Source: Patescibacteria group bacterium (GTDB lineage: Bacteria > Patescibacteriota > Minisyncoccia > UBA6257 > HR35). From it: 46,002 nt of DNA. A model generated the notes under the pieces. That model made no database searches and was not told the DNA's origin. It saw only the letters and a list, made by a program, of their open reading frames with translations. Each line of letters begins with the position of its first letter. Position 1 is the stretch's first letter. Where the stretch lies: NCBI GenBank assembly GCA_025060085.1, contig JANXCM010000001.1, forward strand, positions 1 through 46,002, in the 5' to 3' direction. A program made the position numbers and the translations under genes. This document shows, one piece after another, positions 8,110 through 46,002 of the stretch.

Positions 8110-8364
8110 ATGTTTTCTCATTTCACTCAACCGATTATTAATTTTTTTTCACAATTAACTCAAATTTTTTTGATCTTAGCTATTTTAATTTCAATTTTTA
8201 GTTTTATCTATTTAGGAATAAAAATTTATTTTAGTAAAGGAAATTACAAAGATTTTAAATTAACTCTAATTTTTACTGTTTTAGGTCTTCTTATTTTAGG
8301 TATAATATTTATTAATCGAGAATTAATTTTTGATTTAATAAAAATTTTTATTCCTAATTTTTGA
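8110..8364 (+). CDS. pilin-like small membrane protein, paralog 6 of 7
   Basis: Shared core ILAILISIFSFIYLGIKIYFSKGNYKDFKLTLIFTVLGLLILGIIF. Confidence 0.45.
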   Translation: MFSHFTQPIINFFSQLTQIFLILAILISIFSFIYLGIKIYFSKGNYKDFKLTLIFTVLGLLILGIIFINRELIFDLIKIFIPNF

Positions 8365-9158
8365 TGCAAGAAATTATTCAGATTTTGAATCTAATTCTTC
8401 GCCTTTTACAATCTTTAATAATTTTAGGCTCTATTGCTATTTTTGTCTATTTAGGTTTACTTTTCTATTTCAAAAAATTTGATGAAGTGAAAAAAAATCT
8501 TCCTTATGTTATTTTAGGGCTTATTTTACTAATAGCTGTTTACTCTTTGCCTTTAATAATTTTATCTTTTTTAGAAAGAGGACCACAAGATTTAGATTTT
8601 TCTTTAGATGATCAAATGATAAATCAAAATATTCAAGGTAGATGTCAAATAAGATTTATTATCTTTGATAACAATAATCCTATTTTGGGTATTAATAATC
8701 AACCTCAAGTCAATTTTAGACGAGGTAATTGTTTTCTGACTATTAGGTTTACTACTCAACCTAACCTTGCTTATGTTTTATGTCAATTTGGTAATGATAA
8801 TCGAGAAAGAACTAATTGTTGGGGTATTTACGGTGAACAGTACAATTCAGAAAATAATAGAGTAATGGGAGAGAGTTTAGATTTTTCAACCTTTGGCAGT
8901 CTTGAAAATTTAAATCCGACAAAAAGACTAATTAGATTTCCTTCTCAATCTAACACTATTTATTGTTCTACTACCCTAATTACTCAAAATTTATCAGTAA
9001 AACCATCCAACAAACCTTATATTTTTGTTATTTTTTCTGCTACGCCAGGTTTAAATGCTTGTCAAAACTCTTCTTCTTTAATAATAAAATCGGGTTCAAA
9101 TTTATGGACAAGAGTTGGTGCTGATGCTTTTGATTTAATTACTACTTCAACGAGATAA
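8361..9158 (+). CDS. pilin-core protein with ~180-aa C-terminal extension, paralog 7 of 7
   Basis: N-terminal shared core ILGSIAIFVYLGLLFYFKKFDEVKKNLPYVILGLILLIAVYSLPL, followed by a soluble Cys-containing domain. Its start overlaps the previous gene by 4 nt. Confidence 0.45.
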   Translation: MMQEIIQILNLILRLLQSLIILGSIAIFVYLGLLFYFKKFDEVKKNLPYVILGLILLIAVYSLPLIILSFLERGPQDLDFSLDDQMINQNIQGRCQIRFIIFDNNNPILGINNQPQVNFRRGNCFLTIRFTTQPNLAYVLCQFGNDNRERTNCWGIYGEQYNSENNRVMGESLDFSTFGSLENLNPTKRLIRFPSQSNTIYCSTTLITQNLSVKPSNKPYIFVIFSATPGLNACQNSSSLIIKSGSNLWTRVGADAFDLITTSTR

Positions 9159-35852: not shown

Positions 35853-38454
35853 ATGCTTAAGTTTCATTCTATCTCTGTAGAGGAACTTTTAAATATTTTA
35901 AATAGCAATCTTAATGGCCTTTCTAACCAAGAAGCTTTAAAAAGATTAGAAGCTACAGGTAAAAATATTATTCCTGAAGAAAAAATATCTGTTTTTAGAA
36001 TTTTTTTAAAAAATATTAAAAATGTATTTAATTTTGTTCTATTTTTTGCTTTAATTTTAACTTTAGTTTTGAATAAATACACCGACTCGTTTTTTTAATA
36101 CTTTTATTGGTTTTTTCTTTGAATTAAGGACAGAAAAAACTTTACAAAAATTAAAAGAATTATTAAAACCTAAAGCCAAAGTTATCAGAAATGGCGAACT
36201 TCTAGAAATTGAAAGCTCAGACTTAGTTCCTGGAGACATAATTTTAGTTGAAGAAGGCGATATTGTCCCAGCTGATATTAGATTTTTTGAAGTTGAAAAT
36301 TTAAAAGTTGATGAATCTATTTTAACAGGTGAATCATTGCCGGTTGAAAAAAATATTTCTGTTTTTCCTCAAGAAACACCTATTCCTGAACAAAAAAACA
36401 TAGGTTTTATGGGTAGTTATGTAGTTGAAGGTCGGGGAAGAGGAATTGTTTTCGCTACTGCTTTAAATACTTATATCGGAGGAATATATAAAAAGTTCCA
36501 AAAAATTCAAACTACTACTCCTCATTTTGAAAAACTTTCTCGAGATTTGATTTTAAGAATGTTTCTAATTGCTCTTTCCAGCGCAAGTATTATTCTCTTT
36601 TTTTCTTTTCAAAGAGATTATTTTTTAGCTGACACTCTTTTATTTGTATTATCAGCTTTTATTTCTTCTATTCCTGAAGGTTTGCCGATTATTATTAGTA
36701 TAGTTTTAGTTTTAAGCGCTTACAATCTTTCTAAAAAAAATGTTTTAGTTCGTAATCTTCAAGCTACTGAAAATTTATCTATAGTAAATTTACTTCTTTC
36801 AGACAAAACTGGTACTTTAACAGAGAATACAATGACAGTGAGAAAAATTTTTGTTAATAAGGAAGAAATTGAAATTACAGGCGAAGGTTTAAATTTAGAA
36901 GGAAAATTTTTGGTAAATAATAAAGAATTTAACATTCTTGAAAATTATCCTCTTATTAAAATTTTGAATATTTGTAGCATTGTTAGCGAAGCTGAATTAT
37001 TAAAGGATCACATTTTGAAATTTAAAGGAAATGCTAGAGATATTGCTTTACTTGTTATGGTTGAAAAATCAGGTATTAATAGAGAAACTATTTTAAATAG
37101 AGAAAAAATTATAAAAAGAGAACCTTTTTCAAGAATTAAAAAATATAAAAAAGTTATCGTTGAACATGAAAAGGTTGAATCTTATTATATTGGTGCTTTT
37201 GAAAGTATTATAAATATTTCTAAATTTATTTTACTTCAAGAAGGTATATTTAATTTTGAGAATAAAAAATATATTTTAGAAAAAGCTTTAAATTATGCCC
37301 AAAATGGCTTTTCTGTTTTAGCAGTGGCTTTTAATATTGGCGAAAGCGAAGAAAATTTAATTTTTGTCGGTTTAATAGCTCTTTATGATCCTCCTAAAAG
37401 GGGAGTTAAAGAAACTATCCAAAAATTGAAAAAGGCAGGTATTGAAACAAAAATTTTAACAGGAGATCATAAAGAAACAGCCATTTACATTGCTAAAGAA
37501 ATCGGATTTGATAATTTAACTACTCTTTATCAATCTGAAATTGAAAATTTAGATGAAGAAGAATTAAAAAGAAAAATAGCAAAAACATCAATCTTTGCAA
37601 GAATAACACCAGAAACCAAATTGAAGATTTTAGATCTTTATCAAAAATTAGGTTACTCAGTAGCTTATATTGGAGATGGTGTCAATGATGTTTTAAGTTT
37701 AAAAAAAGCAGAAGTAGGTGTTTGCATGGGAGAACGTGGTTCAGAAATTGCCAAACAAGCTAGCGATATTATCTTAATGGATGACCATATTGAAAGCCTT
37801 TCTCGTTCTGTTTCCGAGGGAAGAAAAATATTTAATAATCTTCGTCGGGTAGTTTTTTTTCTCATCACTACAAATGTTGCTGAGAGTCTAACTATTATTA
37901 CTGCTCTTATTTTAGGCTATCCTTTTATTCTTAAACCTACCCATATATTATTTTTAAATTTTGTTACCGATACTTTAGTAGGAACAACTCTAGCTTTCGA
38001 AAGAGAACATGGATATGAACTTCAAAGTAAACCTAGAAAAACCAATGAATCTTTAATAAATCTAAATTTAATTCCTTTTTTGTTAATGATGTCTACCATT
38101 ATGACTATTTTAACAGTCATGATATTTTCAACTGAATTTTTATATGATCTTGAAAAAGCAAGAACCTATGCTTTTTTAGTAATGAGCTTTACTCAACTTT
38201 ACAATGCTATCAACTTAAGATCATTAAACTCAAATATATTTAAATTAAGTTTTAAATTTAACCCCTATATAGTTTTTGGTTTAACATTTTCCTTACTACT
38301 TCAATATCTTGTTATCTTTAATCCTACACTTAGAGGTTTATTAGGATTTTCAAAAATTACCCTTATTGAGTTTTTAGTTGTTTTAATATTAAGCTCATTA
38401 GTTTTTTTTGCTTCTGAATTTTATAAGTTTATAAGAAATAGGTTGAAAAAGTAA
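35853..38454 (+). pseudogene. P-type (P2-like, Ca2+/Mg2+-type) cation-transporting ATPase, disrupted by a frameshift in a T7 run
   Basis: Frame A (35853-36098) encodes the Cation_ATPase_N-like start SVEELLNILNSNLNGLSNQEALKRLEATGKNIIPE plus TM1. Frame B is open from 36073 and continues NTFIGFFFELRTEKTLQKLKELLKPKAKVIRNG...VDESILTGESLPVEK...DKTGTLT...TGDHKETA...GDGVNDVLSLKKAEVG. The two frames overlap only at the T7 run 36090-36096 followed by TAA. Confidence 0.8.
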
Positions 38455-38526
38455 ATCAAACAATATTTATCAATTTTCTTTTTCTGGATTTATCCTATAT
38501 AATAATTAATAGGAGGTGATCTCTAT

Positions 38527-38703
38527 ATGAGCTTAAAGAAACTGCTATCCAAAATTCTTTCGAGTCCGACGACCTACTTTTTATTAGCTGCAGTTAACAT
38601 CGCAATAGCGTCAGTTGGTAGCAGCAAGATAGCAGTTTTTGCTATTATTTGGCTTGCTATCGGCGCTTTTATTCTTGAAAAAAGGAGCTTAGATTTGAAG
38701 TAA
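38527..38703 (+). CDS. 58-aa two-helix hydrophobic peptide with a canonical Shine-Dalgarno sequence
   Basis: AGGAGGTGA (38511-38519) lies 7 nt upstream of ATG 38527. The product is MSLKKLLSKILSSPTTYFLLAAVNIAIASVGSSKIAVFAIIWLAIGAFILEKRSLDLK. A strong terminator hairpin follows. It is below the ORF-track size cut-off. Confidence 0.55.
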   Translation: MSLKKLLSKILSSPTTYFLLAAVNIAIASVGSSKIAVFAIIWLAIGAFILEKRSLDLK

Positions 38704-38745
38704 GGATCCCGTAACTTTATAAAGACGGGATCCTTTATAATTTTT
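38702..38745 (+). terminator. intrinsic terminator
   Basis: An 11-bp stem AAGGATCCCGT/ACGGGATCCTT (38702-38712 / 38725-38735) followed by the T-rich TATAATTTTTATTT. Confidence 0.7.
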
Positions 38746-38839
38746 ATTTAAAATATATTAAATTTTTTGAAAATTTTAATTTAAACATTATTAGCTAATT
38801 AATTTAAAATTATGATAAATTTATCAAAATTACTAACTA

Positions 38840-40471
38840 ATGCCAAAATACATTTTCATTTGTGGCGGTGTAATGTCAGGAGTAGGCAAAGGAATTGCTA
38901 CTGCTTCTATTGCCAAAATTCTTAATTGGTATGGTTATAAAACAACTTGCCTAAAAATTGATCCCTATGTTAATGTTGATGCTGGAACAATGAATCCTAT
39001 TGAACATGGAGAGGTATTCGTTTTAAAAGATGGTACAGAATGCGATCAAGATATGGGACATTATGAACGATTTTTAAATACCGAATTAACCCGTGAAAAC
39101 TATATGACCACTGGTAGTATTTATCTTTCTTTAATTCAAAAGGAAAGAAATCTATATTTTGAAGGTAAATGTGTTGAAGTCGTTCCACATATACCTCTAG
39201 AGGTTATTGAAAAAATTAATAATGCTCAAAAATTTACAAAATCAGAAATAATTATTACTGAAATTGGTGGAACGGTAGGTGAGTATCAAAATTTATTATT
39301 TTTAGAAGCGGTTAGAATTTTAAAACTTCACAAACCTAAGGATGTCCTTTTAATTTTAGTTAGTTATCTTCCTTATCAAGGTGAAGGAATGGAACTAAAA
39401 ACCAAACCTACTCAGTATGCGATTAGAACCCTAAACTCTTCTGGTCTTCAACCTGATTTTGTTTTAGCTCGGGGTGTTAAACCTATAGATGATATTCGTA
39501 AACAAAAAATTGCTTTTAATTGTAATTTAAAAACTTCAGATATTATTTCTGCTCCTGATGAAAAGAATATTTATAAAATTCCTCTAAATTTTGAAAAAGA
39601 TGAATTAGGAATAAAGCTATTAAAAAAATTGAACCTTAAAGCTAAAAATAAAAATAATTCTAATAAAAATATTTGGCGTAAGGAAATAAATAAAATTGAA
39701 AGTTTATCTCAAAAAATTAAGATAGGAATTATTGGAAAATATTTCAAAAGCGGAGATTTTATTCTGAGCGATGCTTATATTTCTGTTATTGAAGCCATTA
39801 AACACGCTAGTTGGAAATTAAACTACCAACCAGAAATAGCCTGGTTAAATTCTGAAGAATATGAAAAAGATAAAAGTAAATTAGAAGAATTAAAAAATTT
39901 TAATGGTATTATCATTCCTGGTGGTTTCGGTGCTAGGGGTGTAGAAGGAAAAATTTTAGCTATAAAATTTTGTCGAGAAAATAAAATCCCTTGTTTTGGT
40001 CTTTGTTATGGATTGCAATTAATGGTTATTGAATTTGCTCGCAATGTTTGTGGATTAAAAAATGCCCATACTACTGAAATAAATCCTAAAACTAAATATC
40101 CTGTTATTGATATTTTAGAAGAGCAGAAAAATTTTTTGAAACAAAAATTATATGGAGGAACGATGAGATTAGGAAACTGGGAATGTAGGGTTAAAAAGGG
40201 AACTATTGCTTATCAAACCTATAAAAAAGAAAAAATAATTGAACGCCATCGTCATCGCTATGAAGTTAATCCTAAATATCATAAAATTTTGGAAAAATTT
40301 GGTTTTATTTTTTCAGGAACATCTCTAAATGGTTTGCTTGTAGAAATTGGTGAATTATCTCAATCAGCTCATCCCTTCTTTTTAGGTACTCAATTTCATC
40401 CTGAACTAAAATCTCGTTTTCTTTATCCCCATCCTTTATTTATAAAGTTTGTTAAAATCTTAATAAGATGA
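38840..40471 (+). CDS. pyrG: CTP synthase
   Basis: 543 aa with KYIFICGGVMSGVGKGI, DPYVNVDAGTMNP.EHGEVFV and the glutaminase domain GFGARG...CFGLCYGLQ...HRHRYEVN. Confidence 0.95.
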   Translation: MPKYIFICGGVMSGVGKGIATASIAKILNWYGYKTTCLKIDPYVNVDAGTMNPIEHGEVFVLKDGTECDQDMGHYERFLNTELTRENYMTTGSIYLSLIQKERNLYFEGKCVEVVPHIPLEVIEKINNAQKFTKSEIIITEIGGTVGEYQNLLFLEAVRILKLHKPKDVLLILVSYLPYQGEGMELKTKPTQYAIRTLNSSGLQPDFVLARGVKPIDDIRKQKIAFNCNLKTSDIISAPDEKNIYKIPLNFEKDELGIKLLKKLNLKAKNKNNSNKNIWRKEINKIESLSQKIKIGIIGKYFKSGDFILSDAYISVIEAIKHASWKLNYQPEIAWLNSEEYEKDKSKLEELKNFNGIIIPGGFGARGVEGKILAIKFCRENKIPCFGLCYGLQLMVIEFARNVCGLKNAHTTEINPKTKYPVIDILEEQKNFLKQKLYGGTMRLGNWECRVKKGTIAYQTYKKEKIIERHRHRYEVNPKYHKILEKFGFIFSGTSLNGLLVEIGELSQSAHPFFLGTQFHPELKSRFLYPHPLFIKFVKILIR

Positions 40472-40503: not shown

Positions 40504-43092
40504 ATGGAAGAGGATAAAAATTTTAAATTTTTAAAAATAGTTAATGAGTTAAGAAAAAAATTTGATAGTTCTTTTCCTCCTAATTTTTCTAGAACAATTT
40601 CTTTTAGAATTTATCCTAAGAAAGAATTAAAAAACAGACTAGATAAATGGTTTAATGAAATTTCAGAAGTAAAATTTCTCCATCTAAAAGACATTTATGA
40701 GCGCTTTAAGCATGGAAAAATAAAATTATTCTCTTTTCAAAAATTAAATTATAGTAGCCTCTATAAAGGTAATAGCCTTTTTAATGAACTTAAAAAAAAT
40801 TATAAAATTTTAAACTCTAAAACAATAGAAGGTATTAGGATAGATATTCAAAGTATTTTAAATAGCTTTCTTCAAAATACTAATAGAGTTATTAATCATA
40901 ATAAAAAAATTTTAAGTAGAAATAAAAATAAAATATTATCTTTGAAAGAATTATTTAGTGAAAGAAATATAGAAGAAGAAATTGTATTAATAAAAGAAAT
41001 TTTAAATAAATTTGATGATTTTCAGCAAATAAAAATAGATGAAAATTTTAATTTCAATTCGTGGATAAAGTGCAAATCCATTGCTTTAGAGATTAATCAA
41101 AAGATAAGAGAATTGAATCAGATTATAAATGTTTTAAATATTGAGAATAAATATGAAGTATATCTTAGTAATATTTATGAAATTCCTGATTTTCCTATAG
41201 TAGAAAAATATCAAAATTTAGATGATTATAAAAATAGATTTAATTTAAAAAAACTAGAAGAAGTTAAAAATGAATTTTTTGAAGAATTAGATAAGTTTAA
41301 AAGCACTTATTCTGTTGATTCTTACTTGAATTCTAGTAATTTAAGTTCTCTTTTATCTAATATTAATAATAGATATATAAATGAATATTTAGAACAGATG
41401 ATTGATAATTTTTCTAAGAAAGAAAAATACTTACAAAAAAATAAAAATAGGAAATTTAAATTTAGGTTTATTTACTGGGTTAAACAAAATAAAAATTCAT
41501 TAAATTTGAATGAAATATTAATGAGCTTAATTAATAGAATTAAAAAGGAAGAGAATCATATCAAAACTAAAAATTATATACTTGATAAAAATAGCATTTT
41601 TAAATATCTGGATTCTTTATTATTGTTAGTAGAAATAATTTTTGTTTCCCAGCAGGAACAAAAAAAAAGAAATGAAATTTTAAACAAAATAAATGAAGAA
41701 TTAACTAAATTAAAGTCAATATTAATTAAAGGTAAGAGTATTAAAGATAGCTTTACTATTTCAGGTTTTGGGTGGACTATTTTAAACAATAAGCCTAACA
41801 AACCTAATAAAGCTGCAACTTTATTTTTAGAAAATGATAATAAAAAGAAAATAGGCATAGTTTTAACTACCTCAAATTCGGTTTATGTCTTTAACAAAGA
41901 ATTGATTGATGATAGTATAAATAATAAAAAATTTAAATTTATAGCAATTAAAGGAGGGGCAAGACAAAAAAATAAAAAACAGCCTAAGTCTATGGATATA
42001 AAAGAAGGTTATTTAAATTTGAATAAGGATGAATATAGTTGTTATTTCTATTTAGTTCAAGGAAAATCATATTTAAGAAGATTTTTATTTCATAAAAAAT
42101 GGGGTTTTTTGAATGATAATAAATCTAATAAGTTTTACCCAGCAAATTGTAGATTAAAAAGAATTAAGAATAAACCTGGAGATGATTTTGAATATTATGT
42201 AGATATAACCTTTAGATATAATGGAGAAAATAAAACGATAAATTTTGAAGAAATAAAAAAGGATATTGAATATTTCATAGGAATAGATAGGGGAGAAAAT
42301 ATACCTATGACTATCGCTATAATAAATAAAGAAGGTGAATTTGTTAAAAGCGATTTTTTGGGTGAAAATTTATCTGAAAAATTGAAAGAATTATATAAAA
42401 AGAGAAAGACTAAAATAATTAGAAATAAAATAAAAAGAACTCAAGAAACTATACTTAAACAAAGCATTTCAAAAATTTTATTTTATTTATCAAAATACCC
42501 TGGTTTATTATGCTTAGAGAATTTAAATGTTAATTTTGGGAGAGAAAAAAGTCTTATAGCAAAAAGAACTTATAATAAAGTTATAAAATTTTTAATCTAT
42601 GATTTAGAATTGGTAGGATTAGTAAGAGTCAGAAATAGTAAAATATATGGTTTAATTCATTTAGTTAACCCTAAAAATACGTCAATTATATGTCCTAAAT
42701 GTAATTTTAATTTTAATATTGATGTAAAGAAAAAATATCTTAATAATCTAACAAGTGATGGTTTTAGAGAATTGATCAATAATAAAAAAATAGATTTTAA
42801 AGAAAGAAAATTTAATATAGAAGAAATGGTAATAAAACTTCCTTCGGAATGGTTTTATTATAAAGATCGATCTAATTATCCTTGTAAATATTCTCTAGAA
42901 CAAATAGAAGAAAAAATAAAAAATAATAATTACGAAGAAGCTTTAAAAATATTTAAAACGATAAAGCCAAGGATTTCTAAAGATAAATTTATTTGTTTAA
43001 ATTTTTCTTGTGATTATGAAAATAATGCTGATTTAGTAGGTGCTATAAATATAGCAAAAAGAGGATTAGAATTAATAAATTCTAATCTATAG
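40504..43092 (+). CDS. cas12: compact type V CRISPR effector, Cas12 family (CasX/Cas12e-like C-terminal half), 862 aa
   Basis: The RuvC-I block is YFIGIDRGENIP (D595, nt 42286-42288). A Lys/Arg-rich bridge-helix-like stretch follows (KELYKKRKTKIIRNKIKR). RuvC-II is LLCLENLNVNFGR (E672, nt 42517-42519). The zinc ribbon is split: CPKC (C730/C733) ... CLNFSC (C831/C836). RuvC-III is NADLVGAINIAKRG (D843, nt 43030-43032). The gene lies next to a tracrRNA-like gene, cas4-cas1-cas2 and a CRISPR array. There is no HNH domain. Confidence 0.85.
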   Translation: MEEDKNFKFLKIVNELRKKFDSSFPPNFSRTISFRIYPKKELKNRLDKWFNEISEVKFLHLKDIYERFKHGKIKLFSFQKLNYSSLYKGNSLFNELKKNYKILNSKTIEGIRIDIQSILNSFLQNTNRVINHNKKILSRNKNKILSLKELFSERNIEEEIVLIKEILNKFDDFQQIKIDENFNFNSWIKCKSIALEINQKIRELNQIINVLNIENKYEVYLSNIYEIPDFPIVEKYQNLDDYKNRFNLKKLEEVKNEFFEELDKFKSTYSVDSYLNSSNLSSLLSNINNRYINEYLEQMIDNFSKKEKYLQKNKNRKFKFRFIYWVKQNKNSLNLNEILMSLINRIKKEENHIKTKNYILDKNSIFKYLDSLLLLVEIIFVSQQEQKKRNEILNKINEELTKLKSILIKGKSIKDSFTISGFGWTILNNKPNKPNKAATLFLENDNKKKIGIVLTTSNSVYVFNKELIDDSINNKKFKFIAIKGGARQKNKKQPKSMDIKEGYLNLNKDEYSCYFYLVQGKSYLRRFLFHKKWGFLNDNKSNKFYPANCRLKRIKNKPGDDFEYYVDITFRYNGENKTINFEEIKKDIEYFIGIDRGENIPMTIAIINKEGEFVKSDFLGENLSEKLKELYKKRKTKIIRNKIKRTQETILKQSISKILFYLSKYPGLLCLENLNVNFGREKSLIAKRTYNKVIKFLIYDLELVGLVRVRNSKIYGLIHLVNPKNTSIICPKCNFNFNIDVKKKYLNNLTSDGFRELINNKKIDFKERKFNIEEMVIKLPSEWFYYKDRSNYPCKYSLEQIEEKIKNNNYEEALKIFKTIKPRISKDKFICLNFSCDYENNADLVGAINIAKRGLELINSNL

Positions 43093-43100
43093 TTTAAATA

Positions 43101-43128
43101 TTGACTTTTTAAAAAAGTATAATATAAT
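43101..43128 (+). promoter_or_regulatory. sigma70-like promoter upstream of the tracrRNA candidate (and/or cas4 operon)
   Basis: TTGACT (43101-43106), a 16-nt spacer, then TATAAT (43123-43128). AT-rich DNA produces chance matches, so this is tentative. Confidence 0.4.
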
Positions 43129-43134
43129 TTTAAT

Positions 43135-43250
43135 ATAAGGCCTGGTTAATAAATTAGTTTTAGAGGCCTTAGCTCCTAAAAAAGGTAGCAAAAAGATCAT
43201 ATTTTATAAAGTGGGATATACACCGCCCTCTCAATTGGGGCGGTGTATTA
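43135..43250 (+). ncRNA. tracrRNA candidate (strand not settled)
   Basis: The 22-nt anti-repeat GATCATATTTTATAAAGTGGGA (43195-43216) is the reverse complement of repeat nt 8-29, with one change that still allows a G:U pair. It is flanked by the hairpin TAAGGCCT/AGGCCTTA (43136-43171) and the 11-bp GC-rich hairpin ATACACCGCCC/GGGCGGTGTAT (43218-43248). The ends are estimated from the promoter and the hairpin. Confidence 0.6.
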
Positions 43251-43298
43251 GTTAGCAATAATTTTTAATTTAATGACAAATTTTAAAAATTTTTATTC

Positions 43299-43880
43299 AT
43301 GATAGAGATAAGTTTTTTTGAAAACTATTTGCCAATTACTTATATAGCTGAATTTATTTATTGTCCTAGAGGTGCTGTTTATATGTATTTTAATTGGGAA
43401 AATAATCTAAAAAATAAATTTCTTTATGAAGGATATCTTTATCACAAAAAAATAAAATCTTATCAAGTAAAGCATCGAAAAAATAAACTACAAAGAAAAA
43501 ATATACTTTTATTTAATAATGACTTAAAAATATACGGCTTTTGTGATGTAGTAGAATTTACATTCGATAAAATTTATCCGGTCGAATATAAATCTGGTCT
43601 ACCCAGGATAAATGATTTCAATAAAAGTCAATTATTGCTTCAGTGTTTATGCTTAGAATATATGTTCAACAAAAAAGTAGAAGGAGGTTATATTTATTTC
43701 TACAAAATAAACAAAAGATTTTATTTAAAATTTGATACTAAATTTAGAAATTTCGTTATTAATAAAATTTTTGAATTCAAATCTATTATAGAAAAAATTA
43801 AAAAAACAAAAATAATTGGAAGTAGTATTAATTTATGTAATAAAAGAGGATGTTCTTATTATCAAATATTCAATTTTTAA
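43299..43880 (+). CDS. cas4: Cas4 (RecB-like PD-(D/E)xK nuclease)
   Basis: 193 aa with the N-terminal FIYCPR, EGYLYH, GFCDVVEF...YPVEYKSG, QLLLQCLCLEYMF and the C-terminal Cys pair LCNKRGCSYY. Confidence 0.8.
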   Translation: MIEISFFENYLPITYIAEFIYCPRGAVYMYFNWENNLKNKFLYEGYLYHKKIKSYQVKHRKNKLQRKNILLFNNDLKIYGFCDVVEFTFDKIYPVEYKSGLPRINDFNKSQLLLQCLCLEYMFNKKVEGGYIYFYKINKRFYLKFDTKFRNFVINKIFEFKSIIEKIKKTKIIGSSINLCNKRGCSYYQIFNF

Positions 43881-43937
43881 ATTTAAGATATTAAATTTAA
43901 TTATTTTATTAAAGGATATTTATTAATAATTAACGAA

Positions 43938-44912
43938 ATGACAAGTGTTATTATTTTAGACAAAGAAAAAACAATTAGCGCTTCGAACAAAAAAATTTTA
44001 GTATATGATGGTAAGAAAATAATTAAATCTACACCGGTCTTTATTGTAGAAGACATAATTATTCATATTGATAATAATATAAAGGGAAATTTACTAAAAA
44101 TCTGTTCAAAATATAAAATACCTACTCATTTTATAAGTAAAAATTTAAAATATTACGGGACATTTATGATAGCTAATAGCAAAAATATATTATTAAGAGA
44201 AGTTCAATATTCTAAAAGATTGAATTCAGAATTTTCTCTTAATATTTCTAAAAAATTTATAATAGGCAAAAGGAATAGTCAATTATGGGTATTGAAAAGT
44301 TTAGACAAATCATCTGATTTACCAAATATTAAAATTGATGATATAAAAGATAAGAATCAGCTTCTTGGCATAGAAGGTTTCATAGCGCTTAAATACTGGG
44401 AGCAATTTTCTTATTTGATAAAGAACAAGGAATTTACTTTTAAGAGCAGAACTAAAAATCCTCCTTATGATGAAGTAAATTCTATTTTAAGTTATGGATA
44501 TGTTTTACTTTTATCAAAAATAATTACTAATATTAATTTAGTTGGTTTAGATCCTTATTTTGGATTTTATCATGAAATAAATTATAGAAGACCTTCTTTA
44601 GCTTTAGATCTTATGGAAGAATTTAGGCCATTGGCCGTAGATAAGCTTATTTTAAATTTACTGAATAAGAAAATAATAAAAAAAGAATATTTTGAAAATT
44701 ATCACGGAATATTTATTTTAAAAAGAAATAAACAATACTTTTTCGTAAAAAAATGGATGGATTGGTGGTTTAATAAAAAATTTTATGTTAAATCATTAAA
44801 AAATTCATATACTCTTTCAGAACTATCCTTAAGACAGATAAGAAATTTTGCTAAATATTTAGTGGGCGATATTAATGAATATGAACCATTAAACTTTATT
44901 GGATCAATATGA
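43938..44912 (+). CDS. cas1: Cas1 integrase
   Basis: 324 aa with YGYVLL, GLDPYFGFYHE..YRRPSLALDLMEEFRPLAVDKL. Confidence 0.9.
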   Translation: MTSVIILDKEKTISASNKKILVYDGKKIIKSTPVFIVEDIIIHIDNNIKGNLLKICSKYKIPTHFISKNLKYYGTFMIANSKNILLREVQYSKRLNSEFSLNISKKFIIGKRNSQLWVLKSLDKSSDLPNIKIDDIKDKNQLLGIEGFIALKYWEQFSYLIKNKEFTFKSRTKNPPYDEVNSILSYGYVLLLSKIITNINLVGLDPYFGFYHEINYRRPSLALDLMEEFRPLAVDKLILNLLNKKIIKKEYFENYHGIFILKRNKQYFFVKKWMDWWFNKKFYVKSLKNSYTLSELSLRQIRNFAKYLVGDINEYEPLNFIGSI

Positions 44913-45190
44913 GGTACATCATTTCTTATGATATTTCAGACAATAGTATTCGGCGTAAATTGGTAAACATACTCGAAAAATTTGGTGAAAGAGTTCAGTA
45001 TTCTGTTTTTGAATTTGAGCTCAATGATGAATCTTATGAAAATCTAATTTCAGATCTTAAAGTAAATAGTTTTTTTAGAAAAAGAAGAAATTGTAAAATA
45101 ACAATTTATAAAATAAAACCACATCTTGTAAAACAAATAAAAAGGTACGGATATAAAAGTATTATAGATTCTAAATACGTTATAATGTGA
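44909..45190 (+). CDS. cas2: Cas2
   Basis: 93 aa with MRYIISYDISDNSIRRKLVNILEKFGERVQYSVFEFEL. It overlaps the cas1 stop by 4 nt. Confidence 0.9.
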   Translation: MRYIISYDISDNSIRRKLVNILEKFGERVQYSVFEFELNDESYENLISDLKVNSFFRKRRNCKITIYKIKPHLVKQIKRYGYKSIIDSKYVIM

Positions 45191-45321
45191 TAATTGAGTA
45201 TCTTTTTATTATAAGTATAATTAAAGTTTTTATTCAAAGTTAATTTTTATAGCCTAGGGGAATTGAAAAGAAAATTAATAAAAAATATGTTTAAGTGGAC
45301 AAAAAAATAATACCTTATATC

Positions 45322-45350
45322 TTGAAAAAGAATAGATTATATCTTATAAT
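45322..45350 (+). promoter_or_regulatory. candidate leader promoter for the CRISPR array
   Basis: TTGAAA (45322-45327), a 17-nt spacer, then TATAAT (45345-45350). It sits ~70 nt upstream of the first repeat within the AT-rich 230-nt leader (45191-45420). Confidence 0.4.
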
Positions 45351-45420
45351 TTTAAAATAAATATGTTTTATAAAAATTATCTTCTTTTTATAATCACTAA
45401 TAAAAAATCATAAATTCGCT

Positions 45421-46002
45421 GTTTGAGTCCCACTTTATAAGATATGATCACTAAAACGTATTATCTCCTTTATTACTCTGCTAAATATGGTATTTCTCCA
45501 TGTTTGAGTCCCACTTTATAAGATATGATCACTAAAACTTATTTTCGCCCTTGATTTTTTCAAAACAAAATTTAAGTTTGAGTCCCACTTTATAAGATAT
45601 GATCACTAAAACAAAAATTGAATTGTAATCATATCCATGTTTGGAATTCAGAAGTTTGAGTCCCACTTTATAAGATATGATCACTAAAACGCAACTCTCT
45701 AATTCTGCTCCTCTCGCTAGATCAATGTTTGAGTCCCACTTTATAAGATATGATCACTAAAACCGTTTTCAAATTAAATTTATCAATACGGTTTTGAAAA
45801 ATATCTAATGTTTGAGTCCCACTTTATAAGATATGATCACTAAAACTTCAAAACAGAATTAACAAATTTAATTTTAAGACGGCAAATAAAAGTTTGAGTC
45901 CCACTTTATAAGATATGATCACTAAAACTATTTAGTGTTAAATTAACTTTTTTTATAGGTTGTGTTCGTTTGAGTCCCACTTTATAAGATATGATCACTA
46001 AA
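45421..46002 (+). CRISPR. CRISPR array, 37-nt repeat, at least 8 repeats (truncated by window end)
   Basis: The repeat GTTTGAGTCCCACTTTATAAGATATGATCACTAAAAC starts at 45421, 45502, 45576, 45654, 45727, 45810, 45892 and 45968. The last copy is cut at 46002. All copies are identical. The unique spacers are 44, 37, 41, 36, 46, 45 and 39 nt. The strand is assigned from the leader promoter only. Confidence 0.97.

Follow-up and report, generated by a model that had tools for sequence, protein, structure and literature searches.

The stretch of DNA analysed here (the window, 46,002 nt, positions 1 to 46,002 of contig JANXCM010000001.1 from a Patescibacteria group bacterium) carries at positions 43136-43248 of the plus strand an element that very probably encodes the trans-activating CRISPR RNA (tracrRNA) belonging to a type V-E (Cas12e/CasX) CRISPR-Cas system (CRISPR, short palindromic repeats that are clustered and regularly interspaced). 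A previous reading of this DNA, made from its letters without database searches (the sequence-only reading), had proposed a tracrRNA gene between a type V effector and cas4 and had suggested a link with Cas12e. The gene is now borne out by an anti-repeat, a Cas12e effector and conserved loci in other genomes, and the link by the assignment of the effector to the NF045604 equivalog.

The tracrRNA element and its locus

The predicted parts of the element, together with the signals flanking it, are the following:

43101-43128, plus strand: putative tracrRNA promoter, with -35 TTGACT (43101-43106), a 16-nt spacer and -10 TATAAT (43123-43128); 11 of 12 consensus matches
43136-43248, plus strand: predicted tracrRNA primary transcript of about 113 nt, from the conserved architecture and the covariation in 11 loci
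43136-43171, plus strand: stem P1, 8 bp, 43136-43143 (UAAGGCCU) with 43164-43171 (AGGCCUUA); forms in 11/11 loci
43157-43163, plus strand: GUUUUAG, the last seven nucleotides of the P1 loop and the complement of CUAAAAC, the tail of the repeat (positions 31-37); 10/11 loci
43172-43189, plus strand: scaffold stem, called P2, formed by GCUCCU and AGG-U-AGC around the loop AAAAA, with U43186 bulging out; both sides vary in 8 of 9 columns
43190-43194, plus strand: A-rich single-stranded linker AAAAA; AAAAA, CAUAAAA, CACAAAA or CAUGAAA in 11/11 loci
43195-43217, plus strand: anti-repeat GAUCAUAUUUUAUAAAGUGGGAU, pairing with repeat positions 7-29 in 23 bp including two G·U, from complementarity and cofolding
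43218-43248, plus strand: GC-rich terminal hairpin, 11-bp stem AUACACCGCCC/GGGCGGUGUAU with a 9-nt loop UCUCAAUUG; 9 of 11 columns change on both sides

The identification starts from the anti-repeat. As the sequence-only reading had noticed, 21 of the 22 nucleotides of the segment 43195-43216 (GATCATATTTTATAAAGTGGGA) are complementary to repeat positions 8-29, the exception being a C-to-T difference, and this holds for all eight copies of the repeat. When up to three mismatches are allowed, this 22-mer matches itself and the eight repeats only, while 100 dinucleotide shuffles contain 0 matches. The two hairpins described earlier, one with an 8-bp stem at 43136-43171 and the other with an 11-bp stem at 43218-43248, are also present, as are the promoter-like motifs before the element (at 43101) and before the array (at 45322), which are the two best sites of this kind in the region. 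From the former, transcription would start at about 43135-43136. P1 closes a 20-nt loop, GGUUAAUAAAUUAGUUUUAG (43144-43163), and in CasX guide RNAs the counterparts of this stem and loop are, by analogy, the pseudoknot stem and the triplex loop; the terminal hairpin is a predicted intrinsic terminator of the tracrRNA gene, with the weak U-tail AUUAGUU. The whole element folds on the plus strand with a minimum free energy of -40 kcal/mol (z -4.45). An Rfam scan of 42900-46002 at E up to 10 returned no match over 43101-43250, and in a scan of the whole window only tRNAs passed the gathering thresholds, with nothing at the tracrRNA element, a result which has no bearing on Cas12e membership.

The other components of the system lie on both sides of the element:

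40504-43092, plus strand: cas12e (casX) effector gene, 862 aa, from NCBIfam, Pfam and profile-to-PDB matches
43299-45190, plus strand: adaptation module, with cas4 (43299-43880), cas1 (43938-44912) and cas2 (44909-45190), from Pfam Cas_Cas4, Cas_Cas1 and CRISPR_Cas2 and from NCBIfam equivalogs above cut-off
45322-45350, plus strand: promoter-like site of the array leader, TTGAAA-17-TATAAT, with 11 of 12 consensus matches in a motif scan
45421-46002, plus strand: CRISPR array, truncated by the end of the window, in which 8 identical repeats of 37 nt (GTTTGAGTCCCACTTTATAAGATATGATCACTAAAAC) alternate with 7 spacers of 36-46 nt

The 862-aa protein is matched by the Cas12e/CasX equivalog NF045604 of NCBIfam with 836.7 bits, where the cut-off is 200 (E 2.6e-251), from residue 26 to 855 and over model positions 2-886 of 886; Pfam recognises in it RuvC_1 (E 1.2e-11) and the Cas12f1-like TNB. 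Used as a single query against PDB, the protein gave weak matches to dLesCas12e, dVemCas12e and DpbCasX (E 2e-5 to 4e-4). A family profile built from 12 Cas12e family members had as its top four matches VemCas12e, PlmCasX, LesCas12e and DpbCasX (E 1.9e-50 to 7.3e-34, spanning some 660 positions of the profile), followed by Cas12a (E 3e-20) in the RuvC part only. Residues D595, E672 and D843 align with the positions mutated in dLesCas12e (D578A/E664A) and dVemCas12e (D837A), as reported in PMC11685505, and are invariant across the 12 family members, indicating a single RuvC with an intact D-E-D triad. By these profile matches, the effector is a Cas12e/CasX protein, and most of its length shows homology to CasX. 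Its GenBank name is 'transposase [Patescibacteria group bacterium]' (MCS7183767.1), and since the Cas12e product was deposited under this name, the whole type V-E system is probably without annotation in the source record.

Along the plus strand the order is cas12e, tracrRNA, cas4, cas1, cas2 and CRISPR array, so that both the usual adaptation module of type V-E systems and a neighbouring array are found at the locus; among such systems, OpbCas12e has no adaptation module. The GC content of the window is 25.8%.

Homologous loci and covariation

Relatives of the locus were gathered by exhaustive HMMER search, by looking up the encoding contigs and by using the family alignment to scan collections of genomes and metagenomes; a word-based protein search had returned 2 matches only, and a scan of genome contigs with the single window protein none. 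Most of the 73 metagenome loci found in this way match the RuvC stretch only (residues 560-735) and were excluded. Ten homologous loci were used for comparison (L001, L002, L077, L078, L083, L084, L087, L089, L091 and L004), one of which, L077 (contig BEIL01000004.1), comes from bacterium HR35, the organism of the published HrbCas12e.

The elements come in one order in the window and in all ten, directly 3' of the cas12e stop and on the effector strand: the -35/-10 pair, P1, its loop ending in GUUUUAG, the bulged P2, a linker rich in A, the anti-repeat and finally a GC-rich hairpin with a U-run after it. The -35 box reads TTGAC(A/T) in nine of the ten homologues and TTGATT in L077, each accompanied by a -10-like element. 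The placement of the pair, 4-10 nt before P1, is kept in 12 loci if the contig-end fragment L076 is counted with the window and the ten homologues, and in four of them (L084, L087, L089 and L091) the end of the cas12e frame and the -35 box overlap. P1 varies from 6 to 12 bp across the 11 loci, its loop opening with a U tract (GGUU.. or UUUU) and closing with GUUUUAG, or GUUUUGG in L083; the single-nucleotide bulge in the 3' strand of P2 is kept in 9/11. The anti-repeats of the homologues, 19-26 nt long, are complementary to the repeat of their own locus, and the terminal hairpin is followed on the plus strand by UUUU to UUUUUU in 10/10. A repeat lies fully or partly on the contig in nine loci (the window, L001, L077, L078, L084, L087, L089, L091 and L004), the bodies of these repeats vary and the anti-repeats vary along with them, while the 3' tail is CACUAAAAC in all five loci in which the end of the repeat is present. 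L091 has an extra small hairpin, UAGCUUUAGCUA, within its P1 loop.

A more distant Cas12e subclade with 25-35% identity (L003, L005, L079, L085, L086, L090 and L092) shows the same tracrRNA design, with GUUGC in the loop, or GUUUCAG in L092. The gene order of L090 and L092 is cas1-cas2-cas4-cas12e-tracrRNA, and in L005 the array lies directly 3' of the tracrRNA.

For the analysis of covariation, the window and its ten homologues were segmented by hand, and a script confirmed that the pieces rebuild the real sequences. The resulting alignment, A3, had the repeat appended for the intermolecular pairs and was padded with N; MAFFT left it unchanged. Standard pairs occupy 98.4% of its 488 cells, compared with 65.8% in column shuffles (0/500 of which reach the observed value) and 42-51% when the partners are slid by 1-3 columns; 46 of the 65 pairs change on both sides. 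By helix, the counts are these:

P1: 8 of 12 columns change on both sides; 100% of cells pair
P2: 8 of 9 columns change on both sides; 98.8% of cells pair
Repeat:anti-repeat, 9 loci: 21 of 26 columns change on both sides; 96.4% of cells pair
Terminator hairpin: 9 of 11 columns change on both sides
Loop-tail GUUUUAG:CUAAAAC: 0 of 7 change on both sides; invariant in the 11-locus set

Because the slid controls fail and many distinct types of pairs occur, this signal is not an artefact of composition.

The last line of this list concerns a contact that the sequence-only reading had missed. It had left 7-8 nucleotides of the repeat (ACUAAAAC) unpaired next to the spacer, whereas the repeat tail CUAAAAC is the exact complement of the conserved heptamer GUUUUAG at 43157-43163, within the loop of the first hairpin; this heptamer is a predicted Watson-Crick strand of the Cas12e triplex/pseudoknot. 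More distant relatives offer a comparison. The five loci L003, L005, L079, L085 and L090 have GUUGC at the same position of the loop, and the repeats of L005 end with GCAAC. A PlmCasX-like locus, L093, the effector of which matches PlmCasX at E 8e-110, has its tracrRNA between cas2 and the array, with a stem UUGGUC/GGCCAA closing a loop that ends with UUUUACUUUGAU, and a repeat tail AUCAAAG. The pairs of loop and tail are then CUUUGAU:AUCAAAG in L093, GUUUUAG:CUAAAAC in the clade of the window and GUUGC:GCAAC in L005; between clades, both partners differ at four of the seven positions, and no change is seen in the two A-U pairs beside the 3'-terminal pair. The loop-tail contact thus co-varies among three Cas12e clades.

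Published guide RNAs of Cas12e are composed of a triplex region, a scaffold stem and, formed by repeat and anti-repeat, an extended stem (PMC11685505; PMC11246509), and two U tracts close to the tracrRNA's 5' end sandwich the A's of the repeat (PMC11685505; PMC11246509). By analogy, the loop-tail pairing matches this description, and the window has the corresponding Cas12e features: a 3' anti-repeat forming a long duplex, the tail contact and a scaffold stem before the anti-repeat. A U tract starts the P1 loop in all loci, and in the window the UU at 43146-43147 would be the candidate Hoogsteen strand. There is a small possibility that the clade of the window swaps the canonical helix of three triples for a loop-tail pseudoknot of 7 bp with two base triples at most.

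Strand and origin of the transcript

On which strand is the element read? The sequence-only reading had left this question open, and the homologous loci now answer it: by comparison of their sequences, the tracrRNA is read on the plus strand, which is that of cas12e and the array. Five independent observations lead to this conclusion, namely the C-to-T difference of the window, the asymmetry of G·U pairs, the U-runs, the -35 box and the conservation of the repeat at its 3' end. They have to be weighed against the view that the tracrRNA is transcribed from the minus strand, with the hairpin 43248-43218 first, then the repeat-sense segment and TTTTT, and that it pairs with a minus transcript of the array. 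What speaks for such a view is that the minus strand does present this order of GC-rich hairpin, 22-nt segment and T5, that it folds as well as the plus strand, and that one G to A difference in the anti-repeats of L077 and L084 would form a G·U pair on the minus strand.

The pairs themselves argue otherwise. The C-to-T difference had been said to keep a G:U pair; it does so only when both RNAs are on plus, giving U:G, but on minus it becomes an A·C mismatch, and cofolding of tracrRNA and repeat gives an interaction energy of -33 kcal/mol on plus vs -26 on minus. Across all helices of the 11 loci there are 25 non-Watson-Crick cells: read on plus, 17 of them are G·U and the other 8 mismatches, but on minus only 2 are G·U and 23 mismatches; for the intramolecular stems alone the figures are 9 G·U and 1 mismatch compared with 10 mismatches. 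A minus-strand RNA would also leave out the co-varying P1 and P2, whose G·U pairs exist only on plus.

The signals around the element point in the same direction. The run beside the terminal hairpin is a U-run on plus in every homologue and would be an A-run before the hairpin on minus, while the conserved -35 box lies upstream of the element on plus. No conserved minus promoter is found between hairpin and cas4, where four loci have a gap of 5-12 nt. The TTTTT on which the minus-strand argument relied is the conserved A-rich linker; it has no hairpin immediately upstream and decays to TTTTATG or TTTCATG in one subclade. Nor does an anti-repeat at the 3' end favour the minus strand, as had been argued, since on plus it is also the last functional element, the hairpin that follows being the predicted terminator.

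Finally, the conserved end of the repeat is its 3' end on plus, and the repeat 3' end is the spacer-proximal handle in all type V crRNAs (CRISPR RNAs). Because the tail CACUAAAAC is kept between loci while the 5' ends differ, the array is oriented on plus by the criterion of sequence conservation; the repeat starts with GTTT and ends with AAAC. Conservation of the 3' ends is known across Cas12e systems (PMC11685505), and in a minus crRNA the repeat end beside the spacer would be the variable one, opposite to all of them (PMC11685505). Altogether, transcription of the tracrRNA from the minus strand is extremely unlikely.

The assignment of a plus-strand tracrRNA needs to be qualified by a number of results that weigh against it or limit its details. 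The transcript and its ends are predictions. Promoter-like sites number 22, compared with 22.9 expected from shuffles, and since their density in this AT-rich DNA equals the shuffled level, a lone site means little unless it is conserved. A simple terminator scan found no site at the terminal hairpin of the window, because this hairpin has no U-run. Folding does not separate the two strands (z -4.45 on plus and -4.74 on minus). Automatic alignment of the 11 tracrRNA regions with MAFFT followed by RNAalifold brought back no more than part of P2 and the terminator, because loop lengths vary, and since A3 was fitted by hand to the model, its pair counts lean to the proposed structure and are optimistic as absolute numbers. 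The loop-tail pairing is constant in the close clade, so that its covariation rests on one locus for each of the other clades, and a true base triple in the window is uncertain because its tract is only UU, where relatives (L087, L089, L091 and L004) have UUU/UUUU. As to the array, a blastn comparison with 50,697 phage records gave chance-level matches only and no protospacer, which leaves array polarity and protospacer-adjacent motif (PAM) without independent confirmation, and exact 24-mer scans of viral contigs (n=2) gave no spacer match.

The frequency of promoter-like sites also lends some credit to another origin of the RNA, in which there is no separate tracrRNA gene, the cas12e mRNA carries the anti-repeat region as its 3' untranslated tail, any functional tracrRNA is cut from this long transcript, and the TTGACT/TATAAT motif arose by chance. 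The element begins 9 nt past the cas12e stop on the same strand, and no terminator separates the two. Yet the -35/-10 pair is kept at a fixed short distance before P1 in the 12 loci despite their different surroundings and GC content, in four cases overlapping the effector frame as described above. We consider this origin very unlikely; it would alter the source of the 5' end only, leaving what the RNA is, its strand and its function as they are, and the two routes could co-occur.

A more radical view would see in the segment a decayed, inverted orphan repeat lying beside unrelated hairpins, for instance the terminator of cas12e, and having no RNA function. An isolated repeat-like 22-mer could indeed be a relic of array rearrangement, and no Rfam family matches the element. 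Against this stands the fact that the anti-repeat tracks the repeat in nine loci with differing repeats, where the 21 doubly changed columns were counted, as well as the retention of the flanking stems and the GUUUUAG loop motif with compensatory changes; moreover, the homologous element of HrbCas12e served as the tracrRNA part of a guide (PMC11685505). The probability of a functionless relic is close to negligible.

Known systems, predicted function and the array

The closest described relative of this plus-strand tracrRNA is that of the HrbCas12e locus, which is likewise flanked by cas12e on one side and the adaptation genes on the other (Li et al. 2024, Nat Commun 15:10727, PMC11685505); this position is therefore already described and not new. 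HrbCas12e is one of six Cas12e orthologs reported to produce plasmid interference in E. coli with a guide in which tracrRNA and crRNA are fused (PMC11685505). Its effector is 44% identical to that of the window over residues 8-853, and the gene order, the elements of the tracrRNA with their order and strand, the tail CACUAAAAC and the loop motif GUUUUAG are all as in the window. The differences lie in P1, which has 12 bp in HR35 and 8 bp in the window, and in an 18-nt near-tandem duplication of HR35 (L077 8534-8569, GTCACCGGCAAAAAACCG then GTCACCGGCAAAAACCG), absent in the window, which adds a hairpin between P1 and the scaffold stem. Furthermore, the HR35 anti-repeat has 26 nt with one G·U and one A·C, compared with 23 nt and two G·U; its terminator is followed by a proper U-run instead of a weak tail; and the genome of the window is far more AT-rich, with a repeat body unrelated in sequence.

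The prototypes of type V-E, DpbCasX and PlmCasX (PDB 6NY1-3, 7WAY-7WB1), share with the window the 5' stem, the U-rich loop, a complement of the repeat tail placed just ahead of the 3' side of that stem, the scaffold stem and the 3' anti-repeat, which in their guides forms a bulged extended stem, with a triple helix built around the repeat-tail A's (PMC11246509; PMC11685505). This layout was confirmed on the sequence of the PlmCasX-like locus L093, and the family profile matches the DpbCasX and PlmCasX proteins at E 1e-34 to 1e-43. In contrast with the window, the prototypes have the tracrRNA gene between cas2 and array rather than between cas12e and cas4, tail and loop are AUCAAAG:CUUUGAU rather than CUAAAAC:GUUUUAG, and the effectors are of about 980 aa with an NTSB domain, as compared with 862 aa.

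Other tracrRNAs are more remote. Those of Cas12b, Cas12f, Cas12g and Cas12l likewise combine a long repeat:anti-repeat duplex with a short contact at the spacer-proximal end of the repeat (PMC11246509), but belong to other effector families, and their short duplex of 5-7 bp forms a pseudoknot without triple helix. The tracrRNA of type II (Cas9) is similarly a separate small RNA with an anti-repeat, many type II repeats have GTTT and AAAC ends as in the window, and duplex processing by RNase III may be the likely route here too; it differs in that the anti-repeat of the window is at the 3' end, its crRNA has repeat then spacer, and no Cas9 is found in the window, and for these reasons a type II-like tracrRNA was ruled out. 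A scoutRNA as in Cas12c and Cas12d, having 3-7 nt of complementarity only, was ruled out by the pairing over 22-23 nt plus 7 nt and by the Cas12e effector.

From these comparisons, the system may work as follows. The sigma-70-type promoter at 43101-43128, directly 3' of cas12e, would drive the tracrRNA, and the GC-rich hairpin at 43218-43248 would end the transcript. The RNA would consist of P1 closing the U-rich loop with its GUUUUAG end, the bulged P2, the A5 linker and the 23-nt anti-repeat, which would pair with repeat positions 7-29 of the plus pre-crRNA to form the extended stem. The last seven nucleotides of the repeat, CUAAAAC, which adjoin the spacer, would pair with GUUUUAG of the P1 loop, producing the triplex/pseudoknot core to be recognised by Cas12e. 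A host RNase, probably RNase III, would cut the long duplex; a search for its signature motif, confined to the six frames of the window, found none. Cas12e would then hold the tracrRNA and a crRNA with a repeat-derived 5' handle and a 3' spacer. Type V-E systems are characterised by guides and DNA cleavage that depend on a tracrRNA, by a 5' PAM rich in T (or C) and by staggered cuts in double-stranded DNA. In known Cas12e systems the tracrRNA anneals to each pre-crRNA repeat, the protein binds the triplex region and scaffold stem, and the complex cleaves PAM-flanked double-stranded DNA by its single RuvC site (PMC11685505, PMC11246509), the PAM being T-rich in five of the six orthologs of PMC11685505; base triples, PAM and DNA cleavage at the locus of the window are presumed by extension.

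The position of the element before the adaptation genes raises a further point. The U-run of the terminator ends 5-12 nt before the start of cas4 in L002 (2822-2833), L077 (~8642-8651), L087 (~8277-8287) and L091 (~8693-8700), a gap which leaves no room for a cas4 promoter. In the window the gap of 50 nt (43249-43298) contains no promoter-like site and the preceding terminator has no U-run, whereas L078 and L084 differ in having a separate TTGAC(A/T) promoter. It is conceivable, though we think it rather doubtful, that the tracrRNA gene is the expression gate of cas4-cas1-cas2, these genes being reached by terminator read-through only. If so, the acquisition of spacers would be coupled to tracrRNA transcription at a level set by the leakiness of the terminator.

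With these results, what is a 'transposase' in GenBank becomes a type V-E system that is complete and looks intact, comprising nuclease, tracrRNA, adaptation genes and array. Once the strand and the parts of the guide are fixed, a single-guide RNA can be designed for a compact Cas12e of 862 aa, and the 11 loci with two outgroup clades provide a covariation-supported structure model for the HrbCas12e-like tracrRNA. The knowledge of how Cas12e works is unchanged; the value lies in annotation and tool mining, and the find is sound but ordinary.

Regarding the spacers of the array, a search for self-targets within the window found none. Three of the seven, S2 (45539-45575), S5 (45764-45809) and S6 (45847-45891), have a common core TTCAAAAC...AAATTTAA; S5 and S6 are 86% reverse-complementary across 28 nt, and the 5' ends of spacers 1 and 2 are alike. 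This suggests that S2, S5 and S6 were sampled from related protospacers, or from variants of one region, on both strands.

Upstream of cas12e, the window carries a gene for a P-type cation ATPase (36337-40471) with pyrG between the two, and a gene of the same kind directly adjoins cas12e in a contig of the Patescibacteria metagenome-assembled genome SKYB30 (L082 1-2332), which hints at a chromosomal neighbourhood conserved in related genomes. Further upstream, five tRNA genes, all on plus, are found between 20754 and 33993: Leu-TAG, Cys-GCA, Glu-TTC, Val-CAC and Leu-CAG.

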